NCBI GenBank assembly: GCA_032718475.1
Contig: JAUCBJ010005606.1
Span: forward strand, 1-64,000
Length of the DNA: 64,000 nt
Source of the DNA: Nemertoderma westbladi
Lineage: Eukaryota; Animalia; Xenacoelomorpha
Reading direction: 5' to 3'
The translations under genes and the position numbers were made by a program. Below, in pieces: positions 3,851-58,398 of the stretch; the stretch's first letter is position 1; each line of letters starts with the position of its first letter. The notes beneath the pieces were generated by a model, which worked only from the letters and a program-made list of their open reading frames with translations, was not told the origin of the DNA and searched no databases.

Positions 3851-6800
3851 TTCAAATCTTTAGCCTTCATTCAGTCTTCAATCTTTAGCTGCCTGTTCAA
3901 TAGAAGTGGAATAACTAGGAAGGCAAAAGTCAAGAGCACAGATTTTAGTTTTATATTTGTCGTTGGATGTGGTTTTCAGTTGTTGGGGTAGTGATTAACC
4001 CAATCTTCTACAATGACTCCAAAACACAGGGTAGAAGATTTAACAGTCCCACTATATTGATTGGATTGTCAAGTAACTCTGACTCAAGTCACTGTCTGAG
4101 ATTCATGGCTTCTTCTTTGCTCTTAAATTAATTGTTCTGGAACATCTGATTTGGGACAGTAATCATGCTGTATTAACATAAGTAGCCTACATACCTCCAG
4201 GCTTGAAATCATAATACTGCTATAACAAATTTTCAAATTTAAAAATTTGTAGTTTCGCAGCCACCAGAGGCGCATCCACAAGGAGGCTGAATTTATTGTG
4301 AGCCATAGTATGACATACATTAGGTTTTTTTAATTAGATTTTTTTGAGTAATTTGACACATGCATCGAATTGTTTCGCGAAAAAAATTTGTTTTGCTCGA
4401 ATAAATTAGTTTTCGCACGAAAAAATTAGTTGTTGCGCGAAAAAATTAGTTTTTGAGCGAAAAATCGTTTTTTTTTTACATGAAAAAATTATTTATACGC
4501 GAAAAAAATTTTTTTTGATAGTAAAATTTCGTTTTTTGTGCGTACTTTTTGTGCGTAAGTTTTTACGAGCCGAAAGAATTTTTGGAAAAGGCAAGTTTAA
4601 ATTGTGAACCTATTTCTGAACTTTTTATTGTGGACTCAAGTCCAAGTCTGCATCACTATCAGTCCTGCAGCCAGTGCAGTTGTAGTGTGGCCGCAATTGA
4701 TTATCACAGAATCAGCCAGTGCCATGGCTGGGGTAAGTATTTATTTTAGGTATTTATTTGTCGTCAATGCCGTAATGAGGTTAATCTATTCGATAATTTG
4801 GTCCGGCTGCGATAGTTAGCAACAAACACAAACTCTTCCGAAACTATCAGAAGGCCAACCAGTATAGAGAATAGGCTAAGTACTACTTCAGTGGAGTCTA
4901 TGACAAGTATTGGCAGGATGGCCATGATGAACCTCTGAGTCTGACCAACGAAATAAGTCGTTTTTATACCAGAGAGGGCTAGCGTTGGCATTAGGTTAGC
5001 TAGGAGGTGAGGTTCAGGGTTATTGCTCAATCGTACTCGTCAGAATACTTGTACCATTACAACTACAAACCTAAGATTATCCGTGACTCCGAGCGGCCTA
5101 TTGTTGGTAGGCTTTCTGTAGAAACCTACAGCTACAATCAACATACCATTAATAATTCTTCGCCAGCAATCAACTTCACTGAAAAATTCCACTACCGAGA
5201 AACACTGCATTCTCGAATTTACTATTTGTGTGATGACAAATCAATCATCCGTGATAAGATTAGTTATTTGTTAAGGTATCAACCACCTTGTTCCAACAAT
5301 TACAACTTTGTTAAAGCTCCAAATAAAACTATAACACCAAGTTGTATCCCTGAGGGATTTCACTTCGACGGAAAGGGTCTACATACCCTATATCCTGGGA
5401 ACCGGATGATTGACTTACAACTTCTATCTAGAGAAAGAAGTCAGCCCGGTAGTGCTACCGTTGGAGAATCTTCCAGTTTCAGTATCGCATCCCATGACGA
5501 TGAAGGAGGTGCTGAAGTTTTCGTCCTTTCACCTCCCTGACTCTTTTTTTTTAACCTAATGTAACTGAATAGGACATTACTGACGCTTAGAGAAATACTG
5601 CTGGAACTTGAAACTCGAATTGACAACAGTAATTCGAACTTAGTAAATGTCACGAGAATGATGTTTTAGATAGCTGTCTGCGTGCGTTTGAAAGGCGAAC
5701 ATTCAACCCATGATATACTATTGTTTGTTTTGTGGGCGAACAATGAATAGACAAACGGAGTTCTCCCGAGTACTATTGCGTAGTATACAAAGAGATGCCA
5801 CTCTTTAGTGGCGAAGAAAATTGAAAGGTATTAATTAACCTTCGGTTATAATTGTAAGTTTCATAACAAATATTGTATAATAGTAATAATATAATATACA
5901 ACTGCATCCTGTACTATACTTACTGCTTTGGTTAGAATAACGTGCCACTGTAACCTGCCCCTTGCATTTAATTGATGATTTAACATTGAGAAAAATTTTA
6001 ATTCGCCGAGATATTTATATTTTAAGGTCTCAACTGGGAAATTTATTATACTGTCGGGTATTGACAGTAAACAACATAACAAACAGTAGCACAACTAACC
6101 CAGAGCAATAAAATGTAAGATGCCCCTCGGAAAGTATACAGTATGCTAATTAGTTCAGCAGCTAGGTGATTGTGCCTGGATGCCAAATGCCATGGGACAA
6201 AAAGAGGAAATTGTAAAGTAGAATAAAATTCAGGTATATTCTGGTGCTCGTAATCATAGAAAATCGCACTGGTGCCTGTTTTATGTTAAGATAGTTGGCA
6301 AGGCAAAGTCATTTATCTTTTCTAAAATGTTTGCAAATGTATATGTAAATACGAAATCGTGTATCTTGATGCAAATAAACCTCCATATTTTATTTACTGC
6401 ATGGACAATTATAATATATTATTATGTAAACATTCCATTTGGAATGCGAAATTGAGTTAATTAAAAAGTATCAAAGTTCACTTAGAGGAACTCGTAAAGG
6501 CTTAATGATGTGAATGACGAATAATGTAATATATCACTGTGTAGTTAAACAATTAACTTATTAGTTTGTTAATGACTGCTGAGAGGCCGGCATGTAGAAT
6601 TAAGCATAATCGTAGAACTTTTTGCAATGTTTGTCATTTGTAAATTTATTAAAAGTTTACCTTGCCATAAAAACAATCCTCCAAATGATCGGATACCATA
6701 TAATTCATCCCCATACTGCTGGCACTGTATAATGAAGGTTAGAATACATTTAAAATACAATAATGTATGTAATACAATAACCAGAAAGTGAACACGTGGT

Positions 6801-6924: not shown

Positions 6925-7945
6925 CAATGTGAGTTGAATCCAATAACACAGATCCATTCGAAGTGTTATGCGGAGTCCTCCAGGGTGATACATTTGCACC
7001 ATTCTTATTCATAATTGTAGTTGACCATGACCATATTCTACATGGCTTCAAATCAATGTCAATGGGGTGATGGTTACTCCACGTACTGGCTCCATAAGTC
7101 GAGGAAATCCAGCCAAGTACTTAACTGTAGACTTTAGGAGTGGGGAGTACTTAGGGGATGACTTAGGAGTACTCTCAGAATCACTAGAGGAAGCCCAATG
7201 GCTCATCTTCTCATTAGAACAGGCTGCTTCTAGTGTTGGTCAACAAGACCAAAATTTTGACAGTTCGAAATGTGTGATTGTATGAGAATAAGCTCAAATG
7301 ATGGTATGTTTGAGCATGTGGGCGACTTCTGTTACCTGGGATCATGGATCCGGAAGTCAGGTGAGGACCTTCGAATATGTAAGGGAAAGGAAAGGCATGG
7401 GCAGCCTTGAATAGGCTTTCCCGGATTTGGAAGTCACCGAGAATTAATCGTAAACTTAAGGTCCGATTATTTAGAGCAGCAGTAGTTCCAGTACTCCTCT
7501 ATGGGAGTCCATGCTGGGCTTTAACTGCTAAGGACACCAAATCTCTGGATGGCACATTCACAAGAATGCTACGCCGAGTTCATTGTGTCAAGTACAATGC
7601 ACACATCTCTAACCAGACACTATGTAACATTGGAGGTGACTCATTGGTACCCCCAAGCTTAACACTAGAACAAAATCGCCTCCGCTTTGCAGGACATTGC
7701 TTTCGCCGTGAGGACCAGCCAGTGCATAATCTTGTACATTGGCAGCCTCATGGAGTGAATAAGCATGGTGGACAGCCCATGACTTTCTTGAGACACATCT
7801 TAAAGGACACTGGCCTTGAAGATGCGGATGATCTAGCAAATGTCATGGGTGATAGGGAGTTGTGGCGGCGCAATTTTGTCGACAAGCCGGCACAGCATTC
7901 TTTCAAATGCAGCTGCAATGCAGCATGCCGATCCTAGTAGTAGTT
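6925..7945 (+). mobile_element. Degenerate RTE-type LINE fragment (second family), 3' part
   Basis: Frameshifted remnants of GVLQGDTFAPFLFII, DDL and FCYLGSWI, and ORF 7407..7937 (LFRAAVVPVLLYGSPCW, RLRFAGHCFRREDQP) homologous to the C-terminus of the 169..2322 protein; ends in tagtagtag. Confidence 0.8.
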
Positions 7946-8425: not shown

Positions 8426-11400
8426 ATGGTAAAATATACCTTCTTATATAGTATTCTAATGTGTTATTGGGTTTCTCTTCCTTATTGTTATAGTACTACG
8501 AATAATTTCAATGTAGTAAAATCAATAAACTCCAAAAACTTATCACATCTCACACCAGTCGACAAAACTAATTGTATTAATTGTAGTTGCCCCCCCTCAA
8601 TGGTAAATGACAAATGTATATTTAACTCCAAAGATATAAATGATGAAAAGGCTATTATTACATGCAAAACCAAAAACCAAGTCTCCAAATGTACCTACAA
8701 ATCTCAAAGTTTATCTCATATATACCACCCTCCTGATGAGACTGTGTATCTCATAAAAAAGGTTGACTACTGGAAGGATGAAATAGATCCAATGATAACA
8801 TGCACTCCAAGTAAGTCAAATGAACAATGTGAACCCCACAATATTAGGCTTGAAATTGAATATCCTGCTGAGGATGTCGAGATCTATGTTGGAGAAAATG
8901 ATTTACCACAAGATTTAAGAGTCAAGCCAGGAGTAGATGTTCAGTTGCGCTGTAGATACATTGATGGTCATCCTTCAACGAAATGCCACCAATGGTATAA
9001 AAATGAAGAAATAATAAAAGATGAAGATTCAAAGGAACTTAATTTTAAAAATATTTCAAAAAAAGATGCCGGGAATTATGAATGTGAGGCATTAACAACA
9101 TATTCGAATGGAGATACCGATTCTACAGAGTCAGAAATTGTTAAAATTATAGTTGAATATTGTGATAATATAATCTTAGACCTTGGGAAAACATCAGAAT
9201 CACCCAACTACTCAAATCTAACTACATATACCAATTATAATGTTACAATTATAGTTGGTGAGCTTGTCGAGTTTGAGTGGAAATATAATTCAACAACAGT
9301 GTCGACAGATATATATTTCTCATGGTCAGGGACAGGGACACCAGATATCCATCAGGATCACAAAATAAAATTCATTGCCAGCAAGGACTACAAGGGTAAT
9401 TTGTTAACAGTAGCTAAATGTCTGTTTCAGTGTGAAGGATGTCAGCAAGAGATAAATTACAGAGCTAACATAAGCATTGACGTCGTATATTGTATAGATG
9501 CAAAACTCATTATTACTTATAATGAGAATCCAGTCTCAATCCCAAATGATGGCAACGTAATTGTTATAAGAGATAGTGAGGTTGTGTTGCAACTGGTGGT
9601 TGATGCTAATATAGAACTTGTTTACAGCTGGAAGGGGCCTGGTATAATAATCTCAAATGTGTCTCAACAAGCTTTTATTGCAACAACCAATAGAAACGGC
9701 CAATTCAATGCCTCAATTTCATGTTTATATGACTCATATTTAAATTATACAAACGATTATTCTTTCAGTTTCAACTTGAAAATTGGAATTCCCCCTGAGC
9801 TAGACAATCCAGAACAAGTTGAGGAAGTTGATAAACATGAGAATGTTACAATGAAATGTGAAGCCTGGAGCAATCCGCCACCCAGAGGTGACTATGGAGT
9901 TGTAGAGTGGCGATTTCAAAATCCAAACAATGACCCAATTAAGCCAGACAACAAGACGAAATTTATCACCATACAGTCTGTAGATTTGCCAAATGATGGG
10001 CAATGGCATACTGAAACCTCATTAAAGATTGTGAATGCTGATGTACAAGCTGATGGAAAATATTATTGCGATTTTACTAATGGTGTTGGGGTAAAGGGAA
10101 GTGGTGTAGTCGTATTACTTATCAGAAGAGAACCAGAACTAATTGATGTGAAATCAATAGAAGTTGAATGGCTCAATGCAACACAAATGAAAATATCTTG
10201 GCAAGAAAGCGATAATGGTGGTTATACACAGTATTATCAGATTGAGTTATATGAATTTCCATTGAATCCTGTACTGAAAGAAGAACCAACTAATGAAACT
10301 TCCCAATATCTCATTCAAAAGTTAAACCTTAGTGAGGGCAATAGTGAATTTGTTCAAAGTGGCGTCAGTGGAAATTATGAATATCAGCTATTCTATCAAT
10401 CATGTAATAGGCTGGGGTGTACTGTTAAAGAACATGCATATATCAAATACAACTATACTCCCAATAAATCGTCACAAGGTCTAAGTGAAGGTACGAAAAT
10501 TACCATTGCTGTTGTTATATCTGTAACAATTATTATTAGTATAGCAATTGCTGTGTACTATATGATATTTCGAATAACAAGAAAACCAACAAAGAGTGAA
10601 GAACCTCCTGTAAACCCTTCACAAGGTAAAACCGTAAATGATGTTTATAGTGATTACATAGAATATGGATCAGCAAATTATTCAAATAATAGGAAATCTC
10701 TAACTGAATACAAACCTAAAACAAACCGTGAATCATTACGCTCAAAAGACTCCACAAAAGAAGCCGCAGATATATATGCAGAATATGCAGTGTCTGGTGG
10801 TTCAATGGAGGAAGTTAAGAAAGAGCTGAAAAGTGCAAAAAACGATTTAGTTCTTAAAAATACAAATAATGCTCCACGTGTATCGAATGTTCCTCCAAGA
10901 AATGTTACCTTTGGTGTTAAGGACCATTCACGCTTCTCCACTGCAGTCCCAGATGCTCATGACAACCAAGTCACAGTAGATAATGAAGACTATGTGGAAC
11001 TTGGGAGTGAAACCTACTACACTACAGACACTATTAATGTGACTAAACCAATGGAACAACCAACACCAACAACACAAACAACAAAACCGAAGGGTTACTT
11101 GAAGAGGTTACGGGCACTAGCTAAGAGTTTCTCCAAGAATGCTATTAATTCACCCAAGAATGATAACCCAGTTGACCATGAATACTTTGTCTATGATTGT
11201 CAACACAAAATCAATTCCCAAGGGAGGAAAGGAACATCTATGACTACTGATAATCCTGCATTTTTACCAGATCCCGAAGATAACTCAAACTCACTAAACT
11301 ATATTCCAACAACCTCAGGTGAACGATTGAATACCAATAGATGGAGTTCAAATACAACAGACAATGACCAGGAACCTGCAGAATATTTTGTAATTAAACG

Positions 11401-11869
11401 AGAAAATTCGGTAGAATGTCTGGAAGTTGAATATGGAACTTCAACGTCTTTCCCAAATTCTAATATAAAACAGATGCAGAGTTTTAAAGGCACAATCGGA
11501 AATGTGATGCCTAAATCTAATTTAAGGAATGTCAAAGAAATTCAATCAAAAGATGCCGGCTATGTAGACCACGAGGCTAATTCTGGAATATATTCTTCAG
11601 TTATAAAACAAGTAAAAAAAGAACATGATACACCAATTAATATTCCTGGAGTTGTTAGATCAGAAGATGTAGATAAATACCACCAAAATGATGATGATAC
11701 TGCAGTATATACAACCGTTGTAAAACCGCTAGGGAAAACAGAAGATAAACCAAAAAATATTCCTGGTCTTATAGTTCAACCAAATGAAGAGCTTGATGGA
11801 TCTGATACAGAAAAACCGGATATTCCAGAATATAGTCCGGCACTTTTTAACATTCTTTTAACATTCTAA
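8426..11869 (+). CDS. Intronless IgSF type I transmembrane receptor, paralogue A (signal peptide, ~5 Ig-like domains, FN3, TM, Tyr-rich tail; Sidestep/nephrin-like architecture)
   Basis: 1147-aa ORF with a hydrophobic N-terminus. Ig motifs VQLRC...WYKN...DAGNYEC and VTMKCEAWSNPPP...EW...DGKYYCDFTNGVG; FN3 motif ISWQESDNGGYTQYYQIELY; TM ITIAVVISVTIIISIAIAVYYMIF (nt 10499-10570) followed by RITRK; ~430-aa tail with many Tyr motifs. Confidence 0.88.
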   Translation: MVKYTFLYSILMCYWVSLPYCYSTTNNFNVVKSINSKNLSHLTPVDKTNCINCSCPPSMVNDKCIFNSKDINDEKAIITCKTKNQVSKCTYKSQSLSHIYHPPDETVYLIKKVDYWKDEIDPMITCTPSKSNEQCEPHNIRLEIEYPAEDVEIYVGENDLPQDLRVKPGVDVQLRCRYIDGHPSTKCHQWYKNEEIIKDEDSKELNFKNISKKDAGNYECEALTTYSNGDTDSTESEIVKIIVEYCDNIILDLGKTSESPNYSNLTTYTNYNVTIIVGELVEFEWKYNSTTVSTDIYFSWSGTGTPDIHQDHKIKFIASKDYKGNLLTVAKCLFQCEGCQQEINYRANISIDVVYCIDAKLIITYNENPVSIPNDGNVIVIRDSEVVLQLVVDANIELVYSWKGPGIIISNVSQQAFIATTNRNGQFNASISCLYDSYLNYTNDYSFSFNLKIGIPPELDNPEQVEEVDKHENVTMKCEAWSNPPPRGDYGVVEWRFQNPNNDPIKPDNKTKFITIQSVDLPNDGQWHTETSLKIVNADVQADGKYYCDFTNGVGVKGSGVVVLLIRREPELIDVKSIEVEWLNATQMKISWQESDNGGYTQYYQIELYEFPLNPVLKEEPTNETSQYLIQKLNLSEGNSEFVQSGVSGNYEYQLFYQSCNRLGCTVKEHAYIKYNYTPNKSSQGLSEGTKITIAVVISVTIIISIAIAVYYMIFRITRKPTKSEEPPVNPSQGKTVNDVYSDYIEYGSANYSNNRKSLTEYKPKTNRESLRSKDSTKEAADIYAEYAVSGGSMEEVKKELKSAKNDLVLKNTNNAPRVSNVPPRNVTFGVKDHSRFSTAVPDAHDNQVTVDNEDYVELGSETYYTTDTINVTKPMEQPTPTTQTTKPKGYLKRLRALAKSFSKNAINSPKNDNPVDHEYFVYDCQHKINSQGRKGTSMTTDNPAFLPDPEDNSNSLNYIPTTSGERLNTNRWSSNTTDNDQEPAEYFVIKRENSVECLEVEYGTSTSFPNSNIKQMQSFKGTIGNVMPKSNLRNVKEIQSKDAGYVDHEANSGIYSSVIKQVKKEHDTPINIPGVVRSEDVDKYHQNDDDTAVYTTVVKPLGKTEDKPKNIPGLIVQPNEELDGSDTEKPDIPEYSPALFNILLTF

Positions 11870-12061
11870 CAACTTTCTATAGCTGCTACCCGAGAGTAGT
11901 AGGGGTGGGTGCTACTCCTATCCCAAGATTTGCTCCCAATTATTTAACTGGTACACATTTTATCAACCCCAGTGGATGAAAGGCTGAGTGGACCCTGGCG
12001 AGGCTGAACCTACAACCAATAGATTGCAGGCCCGGTGCTCAGCCAACTGAGCTACCCCGCC
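11855..12061 (-). mobile_element. tRNA-derived SINE with Meta-domain-like core
   Basis: Minus strand begins ggcggggtagctcagttggctgagc (A box) ... ggttcagcc (B-box-like), then gtccactcagcctttcatccactggggttgataaaatgtgtacca, resembling the MetaSINE/Sauria-SINE conserved core; short agaatgtta tail repeats. Confidence 0.65.
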
Positions 12062-13681
12062 TTATAACTATAATTCTACTGCATAATTTAAACAATTACA
12101 TTTTCAGCTTTTTTTTTCTGGAAAACAAAATAATTATAGGATTAGTAGATATTGCCCGAAAAAGTAGCCACCACTTTAATAAAAGTTAAACTTTCAAAAG
12201 TGAATTCTTGTTTTTAAAGTAGTCACAATATTATAAAGAATATATTATATCTATAAAGAAAATTTCAGTTTTGAAAGTAGACTATAGTAATAAATTCTAC
12301 ATCTTTGCAATCCCAACCTAAAGGTGCATCATGGCACTTCGGCACTATAACATTTTGGCTATATTGGTGTTGACATCCCGGTAGTGACGGCCATGAGAGT
12401 AAATTGGTGGAAATCGATACAGAATCGTATTATACTTTTGATATTTTGTATTAACCCTTAGTAGCATGGGCTTTATAAAATAAAGGGAAACTGAAATTTC
12501 TCAAAAATTTTATTCTGTAGAAAACAATTTCGCCATAAACTTTGCAAACAATTTCGATCACCACTATATTTTTTTCAACTTCATTTATGCTACTAAATGT
12601 TCCACATGAAATAATAAAAATTATGACACGTAAAAATGAACACATGTGTTTCCATATACATCTTGTATTCCATGAGTGAGTATACCATATATATATTATA
12701 AATTTTTGTTGCAACCAATAATAAATTATATATATATACCTATATGTAGATCACATTGCATAATGCAGAATATGAAAAAGTGAAACATAAAATCGTTTTA
12801 AGTTGAACGAAAAGAAAGTTCTATATTAATTTTAATCCAATTTTAATTAATATTTATAATAACATGTAAGATATTTATTATACTATTTTTTGCTGTCATC
12901 ATCATTCATTATTCTGATATAAAATTTGTAATTTTCTACCATAATTGGCAGTGTGTAATTTTACTGAAAATAATGTTATCTTATTGTTTCTCAGTAACAT
13001 AATGTGCGAAATAAAGTAAAATAATGTGTATGTAAAATGTATATTTTGTGAAATATAGGAAAGAATCATCGTTTTACTTCGTATCATCAATTACTTTCTC
13101 GAGATTATCCGAATCTTCTAGGCCCGTTTCCTTTAAGAGACGTATCAAAAAATTCTTAGGCAGTCAACCAAGCAAATGGCAAGGACATCAAATCACAAGA
13201 TTGTGCACACTGGCTGGTAATTACGGCGGAACCATGCTATCTATTCTCAAACGGTCATCCCTTATGATTCAGAAATATAGAAAAAATTTTTCGTTTTTTT
13301 ATATAACCTACACATCCAACCATTATTGGTCTGTTTAAACATTTATGATTCTTTCAGAATAATGTTTATTATTATTAATGTTTATCAAAATACAATGTTT
13401 ATCACTTATTTTCAAATATTCATGTTACTTGTGATAGAATATTGTAATTACTTTTATGTATCATTAATATTATTTAACATATTAGATTATTTACTGCATA
13501 AACTTAGTAAAGAAATATTTTAAACCAAGATCAATTGTTTTCAATAGACTCAGAAAAAACAAAAAATAGCACATTATTTCACACCAATCCTAAAAGTATA
13601 ATTTGATGAGAGATTGTTAGTGAGTGACGCAATTTACACATCAATGGGTCATAATGGAAATAAAAGATATGAAATAAAGCC

Positions 13682-20658: not shown

Positions 20659-22249
20659 ATGCTGAAAGTATCTGTATCAAGTAAAAATATCAAGCACTGA
20701 TTCGTAGGACATTAACAACCCCAAAAAATGTTTACAAATTAATCAAATATTCAATCGTGTTATCTTGATACAAACAATCTCCTTCATTATATGCAGGAAG
20801 AATAATTATATATTATAATGTAAATATGTTTGATTTAAAATGAGAAATTAAATTTAATCACATAATATCAAAGTTCACTCAAAGTTGCTACCTATTGATT
20901 ACAAGAAATAATAGAGTTCATAATGGTTTACAATAAATAGTTAATTAAACAATTTAGTTGTTATTTAAAGCTATAATAATACCATAATAAATTAATTAGT
21001 TTAACTTCCATTACATCTTCGATAATAACTCTATTCCGGGGGGTGTAAACGCTAAGTCGACAATCATCGGTAATTATCAATTGAAGGAAAAGAACAGGTT
21101 ATAGGGGAAGAATATTCTGGCTAAAACAATAAACCAGAGTCCAATTCACAGATTACAGCTTCATATTTGTATTAGCAGTGAGTGTAAGTTGTGGTCGTAG
21201 CCAAAACGTATACATCCCTTTGAAGTGAGTAAATCCTAATCGTAACGCACATGGTGTTTACATTCACACAAAAATAGCTCCCCAGTGCCTATTCTATTGT
21301 AAAAAGTACCCCCCCCTCCTGTATAAATCAGATATGGGAAAATAACCCTATGCGTCAAAAATACAAAACTCAGGTTTCAAATTTTTCTTTCAATAATGGG
21401 TAAGCGAATCGCTGTTGTATGAAATAAACAGCCACAGTTCCAGACAATGGGGCTATACATTATACAAGTGCGTTTCCATACGTCCGTTGATGATTAGTTT
21501 CTTGTCCTTGCCATCTTAACCAGATCAACCCGCTCTGCCACTGTCTGACTCCATAACTCTCGCATTATATCACATTAACGTATCTATAGTGCATTATACT
21601 AGGCCCTGTCATTTACACCACTTTTTTATGTGCTATTTCGATTTTCCCTACCGCATTTTGTTTTGTATAATTTATCCGCTCCGTCCAGTCAAAGGCGTGC
21701 TGCACTTTACGTAATTCGAATTCACTGAATCGAATCATCGAATTTCATTTACAACCGTTTCGTTTTAAATTAACCGTCCTGCTATTTTTTAAGTTAATTG
21801 TAAAATTCTTGAAAATAACTTTTCATAAAAACTCAGAAATTTGTATCATTATGAGTTTGTAAATTATTTTTCTTTGTCTTTATGTGTCACATACTTTTCA
21901 TTTGGTTCAAACTACCCCGTTTGAGGCGTTAAACCAGTTGAACGAACTATAATACAAACATACAGCTAAACTACGCCATATCCATACTATTAATTATACT
22001 CTGTTTAAATGGCGGCGTGGCATAAAAACCCTCCGATTTCTCAGAAAATGTTTATGAATTTAATGAAATTTATTACAGTTAAATGGTGTTACAGCACTAT
22101 TTTTTTTTGCGAAAGTCACAATTATAAATTTTGCACTATTAATACCTGGTGTCATCCGTAAATACATTTGGATTTATAACTATTACTTTCATCCAACACT
22201 TTTTACATAATATGTAAGTAAGTAGAATAGTTAATTACAGAAACAGCAG

Positions 22250-22970
22250 AACCAGTACTCATATTTGGGACTCTATGCTGGGCTCTATATGCTGAAGACA
22301 TGCCTTCCCATTAGTATTCGAAGGTCTTCACATGACTTCCTTGCCCACAATGACAATCACAGCTAACAGAAGTTGTATACATTCTCAAGCACACCATCCT
22401 TTATGCTCATACGTTCAGACATTTCTTGAGGACTGTCAAAGTTAACTGTCAAAATTGAGGTCTTCTTAGAGTTAACACATACACCAACACTAGAAGCAGC
22501 ATGTTCTAATGATCTGAGGAGATGTTGGGCTCCCTGTAGTGATTCTGAGAGTACTACTAAGTCATCAGTAAAGTCTAGATCAGGTACTTGGCTGGATTTC
22601 CTCGACTTCTGCAACCAGTAGATGTGTTACCATAACCATAACCCCATCGTTATTATGATGATCTAAGGACATGTGTAGGACATATTTAACCACAATTATG
22701 AATAAGGATAGTGCATATTACCAATGACTTTGGCGAGATTTGCCAATTCTTCAAGGCCGGCGTCCTTTCAGAGGCGTCTTACTTTCTCCATTAGGCTGCT
22801 AAAGCACAAGATTGTGAACAAACTGGTCCTAAAGGCGAAAGCAATATCCTGCAAAGCGGAGGCGGCTCTGTCCAAGTGTCAAGCTTGGGGGAACCAATGA
22901 GACACCTCCAATGTTATATAGTGTCTGGTTGTAGATGTGTGCATTGTACTTGACACAGTGAACCCGGCGG
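22250..22970 (-). mobile_element. Rearranged RTE-type fragments (second family)
   Basis: ORFs 22363..22614 (DLDFTDDLVVLSESL) and 22829..23035 (RRVHCVKYNAHI...RLRFAGYCFR) match 7067-7790 in the opposite orientation. Confidence 0.75.
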
Positions 22971-23538
22971 CATATTATACAATAATATATAAAATACAAT
23001 GTGTAGACTTTATTTACCGCTTGTCCCAAACACACTGTCTCTATACTTTATAAGGGGGATGGGGAATCGAGAGGGGAAATAAATACATTACTGTATTTAC
23101 TGTGCCATATGCAACTTTTATTGTTAATATAAATATATTCTTATTATTATCAATGAACATAGGGAATTAGATGTGATTCTCTGAAGCTATCTGGATAGTG
23201 TCTACACCACAAATAATAAACCAAGTGCGACTGAAATCTCAGTAAATAATACTCGGAAAGTTGTAAGATAAATCGTCACCTACTCTGTTTCTGGACCACT
23301 TGGTTGGTCCGTTTGGGGACGCCTCAAACACCAATCTCCTGATTATTCATTCATATAACATTATTGATGTTGGCCCTGTCAAAGCAACGTAGTAGGTGTG
23401 CTGTAGCTAATACTAATAATGAAAAAAATTTCGTACGAGAGATTATGGTGGAAGATATTAAGAGATAGACTGATGGCCAATTGATTTCGTAAAATAGATT
23501 TACCATTGAATTAACTGTTCTGGTCTTATATAATAGTT

Positions 23539-26500
23539 ATGTATACCTGCATATATATCATTGCCATTTATTACTTAGTTTTGCTTCCCGAGAGTTACAG
23601 TTATTTCACTGTGAATAATTTCAATATATTAGGTACAACAAACTCCAAAAATATATCATACCCTAATCCAGTTGATAAATCAGTATGTTTTCAATGCAGC
23701 TGTTCCTCTTTGACGGGGACAACATGCAAATTAAAATCCGAAGACATAAATTCTGGAAGGGCTTTTGTCACCTGCAAAAATCCATATTCTGGCCTTTCCA
23801 AATGGTCATATAAGGGTCAGTCTTTAACTCCTATAACGTTTGTCCAACCTGATACAACGCATTTCTTTATTAATAATGTTAACTACTGGAAGGATGAGAT
23901 TGCCCCGACCCTAGAGTGTAGTGGAAATGGCTTTGCTAATAGTTGTTTGTTCAAATGTTCCATTGATCTTCAAATTCAATATCCAGCTGAACGGGTCGAG
24001 ATTTATTATGGGATCTTACCTTTAAATGATTTAAGGGTCAAAGAAGGAGACGATGTTGATTTGCGTTGTGAGTATAAAGATGGTAATCCTCCAACCCAAT
24101 ACCATAAATGGTATAAAGATGAAGAAATGATAGAACATAAAGATTCGAAGTTCCTTAATTTGAAAAAAATATCAAAGCATGAGGCAGGGCAGTATAAATG
24201 TGAAGCCTTAACGAGATATTGGGATGGAGTGATTGAATCTACATCTTCAAAACTTGGTAAAATTACAGTTGAATATTGTGACAACATGATCTTGCACCTT
24301 GGGATGACTTGGGAATCACCACAACCAAACCAAATTTTAAATTACGATGTCACAATTATTGTTAATGAAATGGTCAAATTTGAGTGGAAATTTGATTCAA
24401 CAACAAACATGTACTTTTTATGGACACAGGGTACCAGTATACAAGAGACTGGTAGCGGAATAAAGTTCATTGCAAGGAAAGACAGTCAAGGGAGTTTGTT
24501 AGCTGAAGCTGTATGTAGCTTTCAGTGCCAAACATGTGAAGTGGTGAGATACAAAGCAAACATAACAATTGACGTTGTATATTGTATAGATGCAAAACTC
24601 ATTATTACTTATAATGGGATTCCAGCCTCAACCCTAAATGATGGCAATGTTCTTGTTATAAGAGATAGTGAGGTTGTGTTGCAAATGGAAGTTGATGCTA
24701 ATATTGAACTTTTTTACAGCTGGAAGGGGCCTGGTATAATAAACTCAAATATACCTCAACAAGTTTTTATTGCAACAACCAATAGTAACGGCCAATTCAA
24801 TGCCTCTGTGTCATGTTTATATGACAAATCTTTAGAATATGCAAAAGATTACTCTTTCAATTTCAACTTGACAATTGGAATTCCTCCTGAGCTAGACAAT
24901 CCAGAACAAGTTGAGGAAGTTGATAAACATGAAAATGTTACAATGAAATGTGAAGCCTGGAGCAATCCGCCACCAAGAGGTGACTATGGAGTTGTAGAGT
25001 GGCGATTTCAAAATCCAAACAATGACCCAATTAGGCCAGACAACAAGACGAAATTGATCACCATAGATTCTAAAGATTTGACAAATAATGGAAAAATTAT
25101 AAAATGGTATACTATAACATCGTTAACTATTGTGAACGCTGTGGTACAAAATGGCGGAGAATATTATTGCGATTTTATTAATGGTGTTGGGGTAAAGGGA
25201 AGTGGTGTAATTGAATTGATCATCAGAAGAGAACCGGAAAGAATTGATGTGAAATCAATAGAAGTTGAATGGCTCAATGCAACACAAATGAAAATATCTT
25301 GGCAAGAAAGCGATAATGGTGGTTATACACAGTATTATCAGATTGAGTTATATGAATTTCCATTGAATCCTATACTGAAAGAAGAACCAACTAATGAAAC
25401 ATCTCTAAATCTCTTACAAAAGTTAAACCTTAGTGAGGGCAATAGTGAATTTGTTCAAAGTGGCGTCAGTGAAAATTATGAATATCAGCTATACTATCAA
25501 TCATGTAATAGGCTGGGGTGCACTGTCAAAGAACATGAATATATCAAATATAACTATACCTCTACCAAATTAACCGAATCAACACAAGGTCTCAGTGAAA
25601 GAACAACAATTACCATTGCTGTTGTTATATCTGTAACAATTATTATTAGCATAGCAATTGCTTTATACTATATTATATTTCGAATAACAAGAAAACCAAA
25701 GAAGTGTGAAGAACCTCTTGTAAATACTTCACAAGGAAAAACAGAAAATGATGTTTGCATTGAATATATAGAATATGGATCAGCCAATTATGCAAATAAT
25801 AGGAAATCTCTAACTGAATACAAAACTAAAACAAACCGGGAATCATTACGCTCAAATGACTCAACAAAAGATGCCGCAGATATATATGCAGAATATGCGG
25901 TGTCTGGTAGTTCAATGGAGGAACTTAAGAAAGAGCTGAAAAGTGCAAAAAACGATTTAGTTCTTAAAAATACAAAGAATGATCAATGTGTATCGAATGT
26001 TCCTCCAAGAAATGTTACCTTTGGTGTTAAGGACCATTCACGCTTCTCCACTGCAGTCCCAGATGCTCATGACAACCAAGTCACAGTAGATAATGACGAC
26101 TATGTGGAACTTGGGAGTGAAACCTACTACACTACAGACACTATTAATGTGACTAAACCAACTGAACAACCAACACCAACAACACAAACAACAAAACAGA
26201 AGGGTTACTTGAAGAGGTTACGGGCACTAGCTAAGAGTTTCTCCAAGAATGCTATTAATTCACCCAAGAATGATAACCCAGTTGACCATGAATACTTTGT
26301 CTATGATTGTCAACACAAAATCAATTCCCAAGGGAGGAAAGGGACATCTATGACTACTGATAATCCTGCATTTTTACCAGATCCCGAAGATAACTCACTC
26401 AGCTATATTCCAACAACCTCAAGTGAACGATTGAATACCAATAGATGGAGTTCAAATACAACAGACAATGACCAGGAACCTGCAGAATATTTTGTAATTG

Positions 26501-26979
26501 AACGACACAACTCCATGGAATGTCTGGAAGTTGAATATGGAAGTTCAACGTCTTTCCCAAATACTAAAATAAAACAAATGCAGAGTTTTAAAGGCACAAT
26601 CGGAAATGTGATGCCTAAATCTAATTTAAGGAATGTCAAAGAAATTAAATCAAAAGATGCCGGCTATGTAGACCAAGAGGCTAATTCTGGAATATATTCT
26701 TCAGTTATAAAACAAGTAAAAAAAGAAAATGATAAACCAATTCATATTCCTGGAGTTGTTAGATCAGAAGATGTAGATAAATACCACCAAAATGATGATG
26801 ATACTGCAGTATATACAACCGTTGTAAAACCGCTAGGGAAAACAGAAGATAAACCAAAAAATATTCCTGGTCTTATAGTTCAACCAAATGAAGAGCTTGA
26901 TGGATCTGATACAGAAAAACCGGATATTCCAGAATATAGTCCGGCACTTTTTAACATTGTTGATTATAAAGAGTGGTAG
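23539..26979 (+). CDS. Intronless IgSF type I transmembrane receptor, paralogue B
   Basis: 1146-aa ORF with the same architecture as A. High identity to A from DVVYCIDAK onward, strongly divergent N-terminal third; ends IVDYKEW. Confidence 0.88.
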   Translation: MYTCIYIIAIYYLVLLPESYSYFTVNNFNILGTTNSKNISYPNPVDKSVCFQCSCSSLTGTTCKLKSEDINSGRAFVTCKNPYSGLSKWSYKGQSLTPITFVQPDTTHFFINNVNYWKDEIAPTLECSGNGFANSCLFKCSIDLQIQYPAERVEIYYGILPLNDLRVKEGDDVDLRCEYKDGNPPTQYHKWYKDEEMIEHKDSKFLNLKKISKHEAGQYKCEALTRYWDGVIESTSSKLGKITVEYCDNMILHLGMTWESPQPNQILNYDVTIIVNEMVKFEWKFDSTTNMYFLWTQGTSIQETGSGIKFIARKDSQGSLLAEAVCSFQCQTCEVVRYKANITIDVVYCIDAKLIITYNGIPASTLNDGNVLVIRDSEVVLQMEVDANIELFYSWKGPGIINSNIPQQVFIATTNSNGQFNASVSCLYDKSLEYAKDYSFNFNLTIGIPPELDNPEQVEEVDKHENVTMKCEAWSNPPPRGDYGVVEWRFQNPNNDPIRPDNKTKLITIDSKDLTNNGKIIKWYTITSLTIVNAVVQNGGEYYCDFINGVGVKGSGVIELIIRREPERIDVKSIEVEWLNATQMKISWQESDNGGYTQYYQIELYEFPLNPILKEEPTNETSLNLLQKLNLSEGNSEFVQSGVSENYEYQLYYQSCNRLGCTVKEHEYIKYNYTSTKLTESTQGLSERTTITIAVVISVTIIISIAIALYYIIFRITRKPKKCEEPLVNTSQGKTENDVCIEYIEYGSANYANNRKSLTEYKTKTNRESLRSNDSTKDAADIYAEYAVSGSSMEELKKELKSAKNDLVLKNTKNDQCVSNVPPRNVTFGVKDHSRFSTAVPDAHDNQVTVDNDDYVELGSETYYTTDTINVTKPTEQPTPTTQTTKQKGYLKRLRALAKSFSKNAINSPKNDNPVDHEYFVYDCQHKINSQGRKGTSMTTDNPAFLPDPEDNSLSYIPTTSSERLNTNRWSSNTTDNDQEPAEYFVIERHNSMECLEVEYGSSTSFPNTKIKQMQSFKGTIGNVMPKSNLRNVKEIKSKDAGYVDQEANSGIYSSVIKQVKKENDKPIHIPGVVRSEDVDKYHQNDDDTAVYTTVVKPLGKTEDKPKNIPGLIVQPNEELDGSDTEKPDIPEYSPALFNIVDYKEW

Positions 26980-27645
26980 TAACTATAATATAAAGATAAT
27001 CTCCTAACAGATAGAGGGAAAATTAAATTGGCGCAAGGCGGCAAGTTGGCCATCACGGAAAATTACTTTCTCGACTCGCTGAATTAATAATATTAATTAT
27101 CAATTAAGGGAAATAAAAAGAAGCAGGATACAATAGCATGTTAATTAATCAAAACAATAAATGAGAATCAATAGCGCAGGATATAAATTATTATTATTTT
27201 GACGATAACTAGCTGTAATAGTAATTTGTTTCCAAGAGTCCCCAACCATAATAGAAAAACAACTTTCATCTCTACAATTTAATATACATTCCAATTTTGT
27301 GCTTTTGAAAATACTGGTTAAAAATTATGTCCTAAGTATAATTAATTATAAGTGTATTTAAATAAATCAACGATTGTTTTACAAATTATTACATTAATAT
27401 TATTACAGTTACTTTAATAATATTGTAAGAAATACTTTGTATGTATTACCAATAATATTATTAAAAATATTATAATATGTACATCCTTACACTTAATATA
27501 AATATATTATAACCCAAGAAAGACCCAATTGTTTTACAATCCAAAACTCTTCAGAATTTGGTTTCGGTTTATATATTGATAAGATTAAATTCATACTTTT
27601 CTCAACTCCTATATTACCATATTATTATGTCCAAAAGAATACACG

Positions 27646-28060
27646 TTCGTGGGACCTTCGCGCAGCACGAGGCTCAGTTATCAGATACAGGTCAAAATCG
27701 AGAAATTCTATCCCAAAATCGGCATTTAAGACATTTAACCAAACCGCCAATAAGAATAAATCAAAGAAGAGAGAAAGGGGGAACCTTTCTCTTAATCTGC
27801 ACGACTGCCGGACCACCCCAACCCAAAGACACACAGAGGATTAATGTAAGGCAGAGGTATTAACAGGAAAATTGTGTTTTAAATTTTAGGCGAATAGGCG
27901 TTCCAATTTGTAAAAAATATTAAAACTTACCTTATGCGGATAGTATTGATACTGAAATATTAATTTATCATGCTCGCTTACTTTCGTCGCTCGCCCCACA
28001 ACAGACACACCGATTGAGTTAGTTGTACCTGTATGCTAAGCTCGCTTACTTTCGTCGCTA
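27646..28060. mobile_element. Non-autonomous interspersed repeat (Helentron/HINE-like family), short copy
   Basis: gttcgtgggaccttcgcgcagcacgaggctcagttatcagatacag start, plus about 1.5 units of the gctcgcttactttcgtcgctcgccccaca repeat seen at 40616-41572. Confidence 0.55.
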
Positions 28061-29874: not shown

Positions 29875-30672
29875 ACAACTCCCAAGAGTTAGTACAACTC
29901 CCAAGAGTTAGTACAACTCCCAAGAGTTAGTACAACTCCCAAGAGGTAGTACAACTCCCAAGAGGTAGTACAACTCCCAAGAGTTAGTACAACTCCCAAG
30001 AGTTAGTACAACTCCCAAGAGTTAGTACAACTCCCAAGAGTTAGTACAACTCCCAAGAGTTAGTACAACTCCCAAGAGGTAGTACAACTCCCAAGAGTTA
30101 GTACAACCCCCAAGAGTTAGTACAACTCCCAAGAGGTAGTACAACTCCCAAGAGTTAGTACAACTCCCAAGAGTTAGTACAACTCCCAAGAGTTAGTACA
30201 ACTCCCAAGAGTTAGTACAACTCCCAAGAGGTAGTACAACTCCCAAGAGTTAGTACAACTCCCAAGAGTTAGTACAACTCCCAAGAGTTAGTACAACTCC
30301 CAAGAGTTAGTACAACTCCCAAGAGGTAGTACAACTCCCAAGAGTTAGTACAACTCCCAAGAGTTAGTACAACTCCCAAGAGTTAGTACAACTCCCAAGA
30401 GGTAGTACAACTCCCAAGAGTTAGTACAACTCCCAAGAGTTAGTACAACTCCCAAGAGGTAGTACAACTCCCAAGAGTTAGTACAACTCCCAAGAGTTAG
30501 TACAACTCCCAAGAGTTAGTACAACTCCCAAGAGTTAGTACAACTCCCAAGAGTTAGTACAACTCCCAAGAGTTAGTACAACTCCCAAGAGTTAGTACAA
30601 CTCCCAAGAGGTAGTACAACTCCCAAGAGTTAGTACAACTCCCAAGAGTTAGTACAACTCCCAAGAGGTAGT
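29875..30672. repeat. 19-bp minisatellite ACAACTCCCAAGAG(T/G)TAGT, about 42 copies
   Basis: Near-perfect head-to-tail repeat with one recurrent T/G variant. Confidence 0.95.
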
Positions 30673-35936: not shown

Positions 35937-37473
<1,537 letters not shown>

Positions 37474-39178: not shown

Positions 39179-41572
39179 CGTTCGTGGGGCCATCGCGCAG
39201 GACGAGGCTCAGTTATCAGATACAGATTAAAATTGAGCGACTGCATCACAAAATCAGGTTTTGAGAAATTTACCCACACCACCAATCAATCAAAGAAAGG
39301 GGGACAGTACGTGTTCACCCCTTTTAATCTGCACCCCCCCCCCCCCCACCCTTCCCACCCACCAGTAATTTATAACTACCGATGCCTTCAACACAGTAGG
39401 CAGTACTCGTCTTCATTATTATAAACGTCGTTGTGCTCGTCCTGTTTTGTATTTAAACATATTTCATAAACGCAAACTGACAGACGATCTTTATAACTAC
39501 CGATGCCTTCAATAGGCGAAGCCAGGTATGGTTAATAGGAACATAGTCTACGCAGTACTGGTCTTCATTATATGCCTCGCTGCGCTCGTCGCTCGTCCTG
39601 TTTTGCATTAAAATATTTTTCCTAAACGCAGACTGACGATCTTTATACAGTTATAAATATGCGAAGTTTCGAAACTGTGCGAGTAACTGCTGATACATCT
39701 ATGTGGATATGTGTGATATGTGGAGATGTGTGATACAACGCCAACGCATCTTATGCCGATGTAGTAATATGGGTATTGAAATAATATTAAATTAATGTAC
39801 ACTCTTAAAGCTGCAGCGAAAATATGTAGCTAATTTCCTAGGTTACATATAAAATAATAATATTATTTTTAAGAACATTAATTTTACTACTTTGCAAAAA
39901 TTCAATTAAAAAATAACCAGACAAATATATTGCGGAATAAACTACTTCAGATATAAGCCTACAACAGCCATGAGTATTTATGTCATTATATCGTCTTCAC
40001 TTGCGATAGTAAGTAATACAACATTTATAGTATAGAGTCAATAGGAATTGAAATACAGGCAGTGTGGTTGGAGTTATGTCTGTGTTGCTATAGCAATACC
40101 ACTGGCTGCCTATTACAGTACAATTCCCCTCTGCCCTGGTGCCAGCTAGCAGCTCTACACCCCCGCAGAGACTATGTTGACTAATAATGGGCAGGATTAA
40201 ATTTATACTCAATAATTGTGCCGCTTTAATTACGTTTAGATCAATTAAAGACACATTTATTAAAGCAAATCACTTGAACTAATTAAAAACTATAATGGAA
40301 TGTTGTATGGGGATTACAGATTTAAGTATAATTATTTAAATCTTATACTACAGTAGAAAATAATTAATATCCTTTAAGGAGGCAGGTTGAAATTGATGTT
40401 TTTACCCTAATCAACTTAATTAACTAATTAACTGCTATTATCTTAGCTTCTCGAAGGCCACGCGAAAATTCAACTTGGATAATTTCTAAACTTTGGCCAG
40501 ACTACATGTGTACCAAGTTTGGTTAAATTTCATTAACATTTGGTTGAGTTATTAACGTTTAAAATTGGACACGACAGAACAACAGAACAACAGATCGACA
40601 GATCAACAGAGCAACAGACACACCGATTGAGTTAGTGGTATCTGTATGCTAAGCTCGCTTACTTTCGTCGCTCGCCCCACAGAACAACAGATCGACAGAT
40701 CAACAGAGCAACAGACACACCGATTGAGTTAGTGGTATCTGTATGCTAAGCTCGCTTACTTTCGTCGCTCGCCCCACAGAACAACAGATCAACAGAACAA
40801 CAGAGCAACAGACACACCGATTGAGTTAGTGGTACCTGTATGCTAAGCTCGCTTACTTTCGTCGCTCGCCCCACAGAACAACAGATCAACAGAACAACAG
40901 AGCAACAGACACACCGATTGAGTTAGTGGTACCTGTATGCTAAGATCGCTTACTTTCGTCGCTCGCCCCACAGAACAACAGATCAACAGAACAACAGAGC
41001 AACAGACACACCGATTGAGTTAGTGGTACCTGTATGCTGAGCTCGCTTAATTTCGTCGCTCGCCCCACAGAACAACAGATCAACAGAACAACAGAGCAAC
41101 AGACACACCGATTGAGTTAGTGGTACCTGTATGCTGAGCTCGCTTTCTTTCGTCGCTCGCCCCACAGAACAACAGATCAACAGAACAACAGAGCAACAGA
41201 CACACCGATTGAGTTAGTGGTACCTGTATGCTAAGATCGCTTACTTTCGTCGCTCGCCCCACAGAACAACAGATCAACAGAACAACAGAGCAACAGAACA
41301 ACAGACACACCGATTGAGTTAGTGGTACCTGTATGCTAAGCTCGCTTACTTTCGTCGCTCGCCCCACAACAGACACACCGATTGAGTTAGTGGTACCTGT
41401 ATGCTAAGCTCGCTTACTTTCGTCGCTCGCCCCACAACAGACACACCGATTGAGTTAGTGGTACCTGTATGCTAAGCTCGCTTACTTTCGTCGCTCGCCC
41501 CACAACAGACACACCGATTGAGTTAGTGGTACCTGTATGCTAAGCTCGCTTACTTTCGTCGCTCGCCCCACA
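39179..41572. mobile_element. Non-autonomous Helentron/HINE-like element with tandemly amplified 3' end
   Basis: Family 5' motif gttcgtggggccatcgcgcaggacgaggctcagttatcagatacag; ends in an array of units terminating gctcgccccac. Confidence 0.55.
40574..41572. repeat. Tandem array, 11 copies of a 68-bp core (period mostly 97 bp, last three 68 bp)
   Basis: Core agacacaccgattgagttagtggtacctgtatgctaagctcgcttactttcgtcgctcgccccac starts at 40616, 40713, 40810, 40907, 41004, 41101, 41198, 41303, 41371, 41439 and 41507, separated by (ACAG/AACAG)-type linkers. Confidence 0.92.
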
Positions 41573-41962: not shown

Positions 41963-44839
41963 ATGCTACGATACTGCATAAATACTGTTTTCCTATATAT
42001 TTTAATCTTAATTGCTCATACCAGTTATTCTTTAGCTTTGGAAACTATTGTTCAGAGTAGAGATAGCAAAAGTGAACTCAGTGAAGAATACAAGAAGGAC
42101 TCTGTTGACTGCAGTTGTTCATCTAATCAGGACCCATGTCATCTAAGATCCCGAGATATACTTAAAGGGGAAGAATATGTGAGCTGCACAAATTCAAATG
42201 GAGAACGTAATGAATGGTTCTATGGAGGTCAAAGGTTAACACCTGATGAATTTATCAAACCGGATGAGACAAGATTTTATATAACTAGTGTCGATTATTG
42301 GAAATATAACACATCGCCATTAGTATGCAAAACAAAGAAGAAGAGACAGAAAAAATGCAAAATATCACTCATTATAGAATATCCTGCAGAAAAGGTTCAA
42401 GTATATCATGGTATATTGCCGTTGACAGATCTAAGAGTTAAGATCGGTGATGATGTTGTGTTACGATGCAAATATACAGATGGTTATCCTAAGACACAAA
42501 CCCATCTATGGTATAAAGATGATGCTATTTTACCAGGTGATTTCTCCAATACGCTTTCCATTACAGATATTTTGAAAACAGATGCAGGACGATACAAATG
42601 TGCTGCTAAAACAACATATAGCTTTGGGTCTGATTACGACATAATTCAGTCAAACAGTGGAAAAATTACAGTTGAATATTGTGATAATGTCAGACTATTT
42701 TTTAGCTATAAATTTGAAAAACCACAAGCCGATAGCATCTCAAAATTCAAAGTAACAATTGTAGTTGGGGAATTTGCGAAGTTTATGTGGAGATTCAAGT
42801 CAACAACTAATATGTTTTTCATATGGAATGGAGAAGCAACACAAGAGTTCGGACAATCACTTGAATTTCCAGCTACAAAGGAGAGTAAAGGTGTCATAAA
42901 TACTGAGGCAGAATGCAGTTTCCAGTGTGAAGATTGCCGTTCTGTAAGTTACAGAGCACAAATAGATATTGATACAATATACTGCATCGATGCAAAGCTA
43001 CGAATTACCACCAATGGAGAAGCACCCCTAAAGCTAAATGATGGAAGCTTCCTTGTTATGAAAGACAGTGACGTTGTGATGCAACTAGAGGTTGATGCTA
43101 ATATAGACCACCAATTTGCCTGGAATGGACCTGGAATTCGTTCATTGGTTGAATCCTTTAATAAATCCAAACAACATTTTCAAGCAACACCAAATAGAAA
43201 TGGCAAATTCGGTGCAACAGTTTCTTGTTTTTACAATTTCGAATTCGAATATGAAAACCACCATAATTTTGATTTTAACTTAACAGTTGGAGTGTCTCCA
43301 GATTTGGAAATAGAAAAACAAGACATGTATGTTGATAAATCAGGTAATGTAACCATGATGTGTAAAGCCGTGAGCAATCCACCACCTACCGGAGTTTATG
43401 GGGCTGTGCACTGGCGATATAATGATCCAAATAGTTCTCCAATTCAAGCAGATAACCGAAAGACATTCCTTTCAATAGACTCGCAGGATATATCAAGTAA
43501 TGGCATTATTACACATTGGAATACTGAAACATTTTTAAAAATAACAAATATTGAAGTAAAAGATGCTGGAATATATTATTGTGATTTCATTAATGGCGTT
43601 GGAATACTTGGAAGTGGTGTAATTTCCCTGCATGTCAGATCTGAACCAGAAAGTATTGATGTAAGTTCATTGGAAGTCAAGTATATCAATGCATCAACCA
43701 TGGAAATAACATGGAATGAAACCTTTAATGGTGGTTATGCACAATATTATCTGATAGAGTTATATAGTCTACAACAAGATATAAATAATGATACATCTCC
43801 AAATTTAATGCAGTCGTTAAATCTAACAAACAGAAGATTTGTTCAAGGAGGAATTAGTGATAGGCATTCCTATGAAATAATTTGTCAATCATGCAACCAA
43901 CTAGGTTGCAGTAGAAAGAACAATGCCTTTATTCAGTACGATTATAATGCAGAGAAATTAACTGGTGGTTCATCAGCTGGAACGACAATTGTCATTGCAG
44001 TCGTGGTGTCAGTAACTATAATTGTAATCATGGTTGTTGCTTTGTATTATTTTGTAATCCGAGTTGCATCTAGACGTTCTGATAATTTGAAACAAGTTGA
44101 AAATCCGACAAAGCAAGGAAACTCACAGGCAGTTGTGGGTGATGATGAGTATATAGTGTATGATGTAAACAAAAGAGCAAGCAACAGGAAATCTCTCACT
44201 GAGTATGCGCTCCGAAACAAACATAATTCTGATGAATCTTTACATCCAAAAGAGATAAACATGAACAAAGATGCGGCTGATTTGTATGCAGAGTATGCAG
44301 TTTCTGGAGGATCAATGGAAAATCTAAAGAGAGAATTGGAAACAATCAATAATAAATCACCTCATAGAAATACATATGTGATTGATAACTCTCGACCAGC
44401 AAGAATCACAGAAAATAATAGTAACATCTTTGGTGTCAAGTTACCAGCATTAACAGATCACCATAATCAAACTACAAGTGAAGATATATACAGCAACGGA
44501 GATTATTTGGAACTAGAAAGTGAAACTTACTACGATGTGAATTCCTTCAAAGAGAAGACACAGCCATCGTCAGTAATGAAGCAAGGTGGATTCTTTAAAT
44601 CAGTGAAGGGTCTTAGGAAGAAGTTATTGGTTGTTAATAAGAATGGCCCGGATGCCAATGTACCAAGTACCAGTGATCACGAATATTTCGTCTATGACAA
44701 TAAATCTCAGTTATGCACCCAGGGAGTAGCACCAGTAAAATCAATAATCGAAGCTGATGATGACCAACCTGATATAAGTAATGAACTATATTTTGTGTTG
44801 GAGCAAGATGCAGTTGACGAATATTCTGTTTACGGATAA
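41963..44839 (+). CDS. Intronless IgSF type I transmembrane receptor, paralogue C (shorter tail)
   Basis: ATG at 41963 (the ORF track starts at an upstream TTG, 41948); 958 aa; signal peptide, same Cys and Ig pattern (DAGRYKC, DAGIYYCDFINGVG), FN3 (ITWNETFNGGYAQYYLIELY), TM TIVIAVVVSVTIIVIMVVALYYFVI. Confidence 0.88.
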   Translation: MLRYCINTVFLYILILIAHTSYSLALETIVQSRDSKSELSEEYKKDSVDCSCSSNQDPCHLRSRDILKGEEYVSCTNSNGERNEWFYGGQRLTPDEFIKPDETRFYITSVDYWKYNTSPLVCKTKKKRQKKCKISLIIEYPAEKVQVYHGILPLTDLRVKIGDDVVLRCKYTDGYPKTQTHLWYKDDAILPGDFSNTLSITDILKTDAGRYKCAAKTTYSFGSDYDIIQSNSGKITVEYCDNVRLFFSYKFEKPQADSISKFKVTIVVGEFAKFMWRFKSTTNMFFIWNGEATQEFGQSLEFPATKESKGVINTEAECSFQCEDCRSVSYRAQIDIDTIYCIDAKLRITTNGEAPLKLNDGSFLVMKDSDVVMQLEVDANIDHQFAWNGPGIRSLVESFNKSKQHFQATPNRNGKFGATVSCFYNFEFEYENHHNFDFNLTVGVSPDLEIEKQDMYVDKSGNVTMMCKAVSNPPPTGVYGAVHWRYNDPNSSPIQADNRKTFLSIDSQDISSNGIITHWNTETFLKITNIEVKDAGIYYCDFINGVGILGSGVISLHVRSEPESIDVSSLEVKYINASTMEITWNETFNGGYAQYYLIELYSLQQDINNDTSPNLMQSLNLTNRRFVQGGISDRHSYEIICQSCNQLGCSRKNNAFIQYDYNAEKLTGGSSAGTTIVIAVVVSVTIIVIMVVALYYFVIRVASRRSDNLKQVENPTKQGNSQAVVGDDEYIVYDVNKRASNRKSLTEYALRNKHNSDESLHPKEINMNKDAADLYAEYAVSGGSMENLKRELETINNKSPHRNTYVIDNSRPARITENNSNIFGVKLPALTDHHNQTTSEDIYSNGDYLELESETYYDVNSFKEKTQPSSVMKQGGFFKSVKGLRKKLLVVNKNGPDANVPSTSDHEYFVYDNKSQLCTQGVAPVKSIIEADDDQPDISNELYFVLEQDAVDEYSVYG

Positions 44840-58332: not shown

Positions 58333-58398
58333 GAGCCATGTGACAACCCGACGGATAGGATACTCAGCTACAGCTCCAGTTGGTACAAGACCAAGAAG

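Follow-up and report, generated by a model that had tools for sequence, protein, structure and literature searches.

Genes A and B, neighbouring members of a family of putative Ig receptors, show an old, young, old pattern of divergence: a 2.4-kb tract of young identity is bounded on both sides by sequence of much older divergence. These 3' 2.4 kb have most probably been homogenised by repeated ectopic gene conversion, with each of the two genes as a possible donor. Ectopic gene conversion is a textbook process; the A-D family, composed of Ig, FN3 and TM parts, is uncharacterised and is a new setting for it. As a case of regional concerted evolution among Ig receptors, the pair is clean and double-bounded. 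If trees were calculated from the complete genes, the A/B duplication would be mis-dated by a factor of about nine.

The window, that is, the whole stretch of 64,000 nucleotides that was analysed, is repeat-rich DNA of animal type with a GC content of about 30-44% outside one retroelement. Four long ORFs on the same, forward strand represent the paralogues A, B, C and D, which can be aligned end to end. Gene A (8426-11869, 1147 amino acids) and its partner, gene B (23539-26979, 1146 amino acids), each consist of a single ORF. Gene C (41963-44839, 958 amino acids) is the outgroup paralogue, and gene D (61648-64000), which is cut by the end of the window, is a recent sister of C. The protein of A is 77% identical to that of B and 44-45% identical to those of C and D. 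C and D are 94% identical, with identical runs of up to 221 nt from module 4 to the TM segment; their divergence is higher in modules 1 and 3 and in the juxtamembrane part. Because the frames are open and alignable throughout, all four genes are apparently intronless.

The product of gene B consists, in this order, of a predicted signal peptide, five Ig or Ig-like modules, an FN3-like domain, a TM helix and a long, Tyr-containing tail. The sequence itself shows the hydrophobic N-terminus and the TM segment. Pfam Ig families score above the cut-off in all four proteins (Ig_3 at 57-65 bits, V-set at 31-40 bits), but their detection is restricted to modules 2 and 5, and modules 1, 3 and 4 are undetected. 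The fn3 matches of the four proteins are below the cut-off, and cadherin families are absent among their Pfam matches. Modules 3 and 4 align with each other as repeats (E=2e-4, 22% identity). Two AlphaFold folds calculated from four-sequence alignments were of low confidence (pLDDT 47 and 34), and the Foldseek matches of the first of them (contactin, RPTP and Robo, with TM scores of 0.1-0.2) were set aside. The tails of A and B contain 21 Tyr and four YxxI/L/V sites each, and the tail of C is about 170 amino acids shorter. No strict ITAM, ITIM or ITSM occurs in the tails of the four proteins, that of D being incomplete. The 'recognition' and 'signalling' halves of these putative receptors are labels taken from the architecture.

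The nucleotide identity of A and B is 0.654 before the motif DVVYCIDAK (B 24571, A 9479), rises to 0.933 behind it and reaches 0.953 in the part from the TM segment to the end. Both the switch at this motif and the near identity of the tails, which had been noticed in the sequence-only reading, are thus real. The best changepoint for all sites lies at B 24568 (support 24550-24579), with 352 differences in 1014 sites before it and 160 in 2385 after it. When only codons for the same amino acid are considered, the changepoint is found at B 24577 (support 24496-24592), with 60/174 versus 37/686 differences and a permutation p of 0.001. From modules 1-3 to the part beginning with module 4, dS falls from 0.98 to 0.11 and dN from 0.38 to 0.06; a uniform dS along A/B, which had been named beforehand as the contrary outcome, did not occur. 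Among fourfold-degenerate sites, 22 of 60 differ between A and B before B ~24568 and 25 of 279 after it (p=4e-7). At the same class of sites, there is no step between A and C (26/43 versus 59/109, p=0.59) or between B and C (32/49 versus 58/112, p=0.12), and local mutation rate or constraint therefore fails to explain the step between A and B. The changepoint of the C/D pair is not significant (p=0.41), which leaves A/B as the only pair with this pattern.

The step divides gene B into an unconverted 5' third (23539-24567, corresponding to A 8426-9475), which contains the signal peptide and modules 1-3 and is 65% identical to A in nucleotides, and a homogenised tract (24568-26958, corresponding to A 9476-11854), which is 93% identical. 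Besides the TM segment and the tail, two of the extracellular modules are included in the tract, as is the FN3-like domain. Module 4 begins with IDVVYC at B 24568, and the identity switch is therefore on the module 3/4 junction. This agrees with an earlier placement at an Ig3/Ig4 boundary as far as the junction is concerned, but Pfam detects neither of the two modules as Ig. The chance that a random boundary would be this close to a junction is estimated at about 1 in 20, there being about six junctions in 3.4 kb, and the match is suggestive only. The dN/dS ratio of modules 1-3 is 0.39 for A/B and 0.42 for C/D, and these values of about 0.4 give no sign of positive selection there. A rise of GC3 in the tract, which would be a supportive though not a defining sign of conversion, is absent: the values are 0.25 versus 0.29 for A, and for B the tract is lower, with 0.25 versus 0.33 (p=0.006). 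This speaks against conversion. Module 4 (24571-24879) has an A/B dN/dS of about 0.83, with 25 nonsynonymous and 8 synonymous differences, and an A-C ratio of about 0.39.

On the right side, the high identity of A and B runs to the last codons (B 26958, A 11854) and stops there, the last 215 nt of the tract being identical; no high-identity sequence past the stop codons is seen in the window. The tract ends at a replacement of A's last codons (11855-12062, reverse strand; ends approximate), which, read by eye, resembles a tRNA-headed SINE-like insertion. No tRNA, no Rfam match and, within the window, no second copy were found for it. Directly after the perfect match, the protein of A ends with LLTF and that of B with VDYKEW. 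Behind the putative insertion in A, 10 nt match the sequence at the stop of B.

Outside the genes, A and B share two blocks of homology on the forward strand. The upstream block (A 6324-6566, B 20725-20966) is 67% identical by BLAST and 72% identical in ungapped columns. The downstream block (A 13331-13545, B 27314-27540) is 69% identical by BLAST and 80% identical in ungapped columns, with many gaps; it is short and AT-rich. The local scores of the two blocks, 68 and 57, compare with shuffle maxima of 23 and 28 (200 shuffles each), and both blocks are unique and collinear, which indicates that A and B are an old duplication at the DNA level. A weak match of the 3' flank of C (score 23, shuffle maximum 23) was rejected. 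The upstream flanks of A (6992-7937) and B (22231-22969) also contain LINE-like fragments, which are partly inverted relative to each other.

The tract itself is not of one age. A second A/B changepoint is found at B ~25900-25990 (p=0.001 for synonymous and 0.003 for all sites). It separates the middle part, with 128 differences in 1402 sites, from a younger stratum in the tail (25988-26958), with 32 in 983, and the proportion of differing sites thus drops stepwise towards the 3' end: 35%, 9% and 3%. Within module 5, an island of higher A/B divergence (25041-25159) contains 24 differences in 110 nt (p=0.008). This patch had been described as more similar to C than to A. The contrast between A and B is a real one, but the resemblance to C is not: identity is 62% for B-C, 76% for A-B and 66% for A-C, and the site patterns uniting AB, BC and AC number 19, 5 and 9. 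The second step and the module 5 island suggest several conversion events, or tracts, of different age.

Read-derived contigs from other samples contained part of the stretch in five of the six listed runs, which represent three samples; four of the runs were aligned, to B only. In X1 and X3, from two samples, module 4 is present as separate A-type and B-type contigs (with 0 and 25 differences over 261 nt), and the read data thus contain both copies. All 39 of the variants checked carry the letters of A (40 of 181 variants being listed). The contigs listed for X1-X3 end near the A/B fork. X4, from the third sample, has a 2180-nt contig that spans 30 of the listed diagnostic sites; 26 of them (25401-25909) are A-type and the next four (25924-25985) are B-type. 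It has both A-type indels and extends past B's stop into the 3' flank up to 27515; A-type letters in the FN3 and TM parts are thereby joined to B's 3' flank. Both a further conversion and an A::B crossover in that sample fit this contig. Since short bubbles have been collapsed in an arbitrary way in such contigs, it is a lead and not proof. There is no cover in X4 over B 23000-25309, and the word share of 0.21 is close to that of an A-type tail plus the B flank (0.16+0.06). A single-gene haplotype in X4 is not claimed, since missing cover is no evidence for one. The contig with B's unique 5' part (23543-24344) has no differences in X1 but seven in X2 and X3, or about 0.9%, and modules 1-2 may accordingly vary between alleles. 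A pair of X1 contigs (agreement 0.83) has a loose end at 24704 that reads on in frame as QHKFTWNGPG. This peptide is unlike A/B and unlike C/D (DHQFAWNGPG), and the end probably belongs to a fifth paralogue outside the window.

The following course of events is proposed for the homogenisation. A and B, which are 15 kb apart, would mis-pair, and a break in one of them would be repaired from the other. The 3' end of the tract would be at the last codons, where homology ends. At the module 3/4 junction, heteroduplex extension may have been blocked by module 3, which is rich in indels; alternatively or in addition, longer tracts may have been purged by selection against hybrids with altered outer modules. 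Modules 1-3 would in either case have escaped conversion between A and B, and the two receptors are predicted to differ in their outer binding ends but to have a nearly common stalk and tail. A and B are equally compatible with the data as acceptors, and to single out B, as had been done initially, is arbitrary.

The sequence-only reading had described B as a mosaic with a recognition half like that of C/D. A transfer of its 5' third and of the Ig5 patch from the C/D lineage, which would be true domain shuffling, is very improbable. Words common to B and C/D upstream of the switch do exist at the protein level: in modules 1-3, 55 amino-acid columns have A=B≠C, 36 have B=C≠A and 15 have A=C≠B (36 versus 15, p=0.005). 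A B=C run of 23 nt is found at the module 2/3 junction, where micro-conversion or constraint could be responsible, and the corresponding A=C run is 19 nt long. B is, however, not closer to C/D than to A. The nucleotide site patterns of modules 1-3 are 189/102/99 for A=B, B=C and A=C; the 5' third of B is 65% identical to A and 55% to C in nucleotides; at fourfold sites of this third, 22/60 differ between B and A and 32/49 between B and C (p=0.004); and the patch in module 5 has the AB-dominated site patterns given above. The upstream flank of B matches that of A and not those of C or D. Trees of modules 1-3, of module 4 to FN3 and of the TM region all give AB|CD, so that the separate trees proposed for the two halves are not in conflict. 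Four-taxon trees have little topological power, C and D being close sisters, and the test of a C/D donor is therefore carried by branch lengths and site patterns. Across these trees, the A-B path length falls from 0.64 to 0.10, and the stem from 0.77 to 0.51. The protein branch of A in modules 1-3 is merely longer than that of B (0.80 versus 0.32), and the words that B shares with C/D are therefore most likely ancestral residues kept by B and lost by A. Judged by these comparisons, the 5' third of B is the old sister of A's. Since this third has A and not C as its nearer relative and the topology AB|CD holds for both halves, the 5' parts were retained and not exchanged, contrary to the shuffling of domains that had been suggested. 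The chances are smaller still that A and B are recent and of uniform age, and that their contrast is due to strong constraint on the 3' part or to fast adaptive change of the 5' part. Modules 1-3 do change faster in protein (A-C dN is 0.60 there and about 0.37 from module 4 to FN3), but the step is synonymous, amounts to about ninefold in dS and is missing from the other pairs, and the part in which A and B are most similar is the tail, which is only about 42% identical to that of C.

Recombination, which had initially been put as either gene conversion or unequal crossover, has homogenised the 3' two-thirds, and of the two processes conversion is favoured because both flanks are at the old divergence. 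A single unequal crossover could have made a hybrid gene from an old 5' third and the 3' part of its partner, the co-duplicated flank being erased later by deletions and insertions. The sharp left boundary would follow from such an event, and the X4 contig is compatible with an A::B fusion. After a single crossover, however, one of the flanks should also be highly identical, whereas no such identity is present past the stop codons, where the downstream block is at the old divergence; the A-B interval is not repeated within the window, and two age strata require at least two events. We consider this quite unlikely. It is unlikely, too, that the donor was reverse-transcribed mRNA, a cDNA-templated variant of conversion that would yield 3'-biased tracts and could also explain the lack of introns. 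The stepwise rise in identity towards the 3' end and the single ORFs of the genes are in its favour, as is an ORF at 169-2349 on the reverse strand, which by its motifs presumably encodes a LINE-like reverse transcriptase. Against this template, the left boundary is sharp, without a taper, and on a module junction, the flank homology of A and B indicates duplication at the DNA level, and selection on tracts yields the same steps. An assembly artefact, with copies collapsed or mis-polished, could account for the identity of the final 215 nt, and no contig among those listed bridges the left boundary, but the tract contains 160 A/B differences and both versions of module 4 are found as separate contigs in two samples, which makes an artefact hardly credible.

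Several known systems were compared with the family. The clustered protocadherin variable exons of fugu have a 5' identity of 60-80% and a 3' identity of >99%, with a discrete boundary in EC4 or EC5 and a rise of GC3 in the converted part (PMC1852091). A/B share with them the tandem arrangement of adhesion-type genes, divergent 5' and near-identical 3' parts and a boundary inside the ectodomain; as between A/B and C/D, the converted parts of protocadherins differ strongly between subclusters (same source). The polarity of A/B is likewise that of protocadherins, the outer modules staying distinct. A review ascribes such a protocadherin pattern to selection against conversion (PMC3966226). Protocadherins have cadherin repeats and shared constant exons, whereas A and B have Ig and FN3 modules and a whole tail per gene in one ORF; the A/B tract is 93% identical, versus >99% in fugu, shows no GC3 rise and is found in one pair. 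The resemblance to clustered protocadherins is confined to evolution. In the paired Siglecs, Siglec-11/16, repeated gene conversion likewise maintains the similarity of Ig receptors, but with the opposite polarity: their ligand-binding part is converted and their signalling differs (PMC5701461), whereas in A/B it is the outer modules that differ and the stalk and tail that are shared. Hydractinia Alr is, like A-D, an invertebrate cluster of divergent genes with Ig and Fn3-like domains, a TM segment and a Tyr-containing tail (PMC9546547). The Ig domains of Alr proteins, however, number 1-3 and are encoded by one exon each, and an ITAM or ITIM is present in many of these proteins, whereas A-D have five modules in uninterrupted ORFs without a strict ITAM or ITIM.

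Relatives of the family were sought in sequence libraries. Word-indexed searches, which covered near lengths only, gave no match at E≤0.001 among 7297 and 5870 candidates. A HMMER search gave 2117 matches; the best 150 of the 2117 are multi-Ig proteins, nearly all of which match best over module 2. BLAST against the best HMMER matches produced partial alignments only, and neither a full-length relative nor an orthologue was found in the libraries searched. A search of the PDB gave 34 matches, all generic Ig. Feature matches in the atlas, at 0.91-0.93, were a Rotifera Ig/FN3 cluster, borderless, NCAM-like and nephrin. IgSF proteins of the nephrin, Sidestep, Borderless and NCAM-like types have, like A-D, Ig repeats, a membrane-proximal FN3 and a TM segment, but the similarity to A-D is that of generic Ig domains, the best BLAST matches being 20-41% identical over parts; the likeness to Sidestep is presumed. 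A literature search, with most subscription papers outside its scope, found no description of the A-D family.

A joint reading of these observations, which is speculative and on the whole doubtful, is that A-D belong to a family of intronless Ig receptors of invertebrates, hitherto undescribed, in which a protocadherin-like identity code has evolved independently. Modules 1-3 would provide paralogue-specific binding, and ongoing, possibly cDNA-templated conversion would keep the stalk and tail common in place of constant exons. A/B hybrid or single-gene haplotypes would segregate among individuals, as expected of a locus for self/non-self recognition or cell identity. Provided that binding specificity depends on the outer modules and that haplotypes vary, the locus would be a candidate recognition system.

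Other repeats occupy parts of the window between and beyond the genes. A broken LTR retroelement, presumably of the BEL/Pao type judging from its motifs, is located between C and D (~51500-59700, forward strand). Very homogeneous tandem arrays are present at 29875-30672, 37106-37398 and 40582-41572; their units are 19 bp (42 copies), ACG (98 copies) and 97/68 bp, and the 68-bp unit also occurs as a single copy at 27972-28059.
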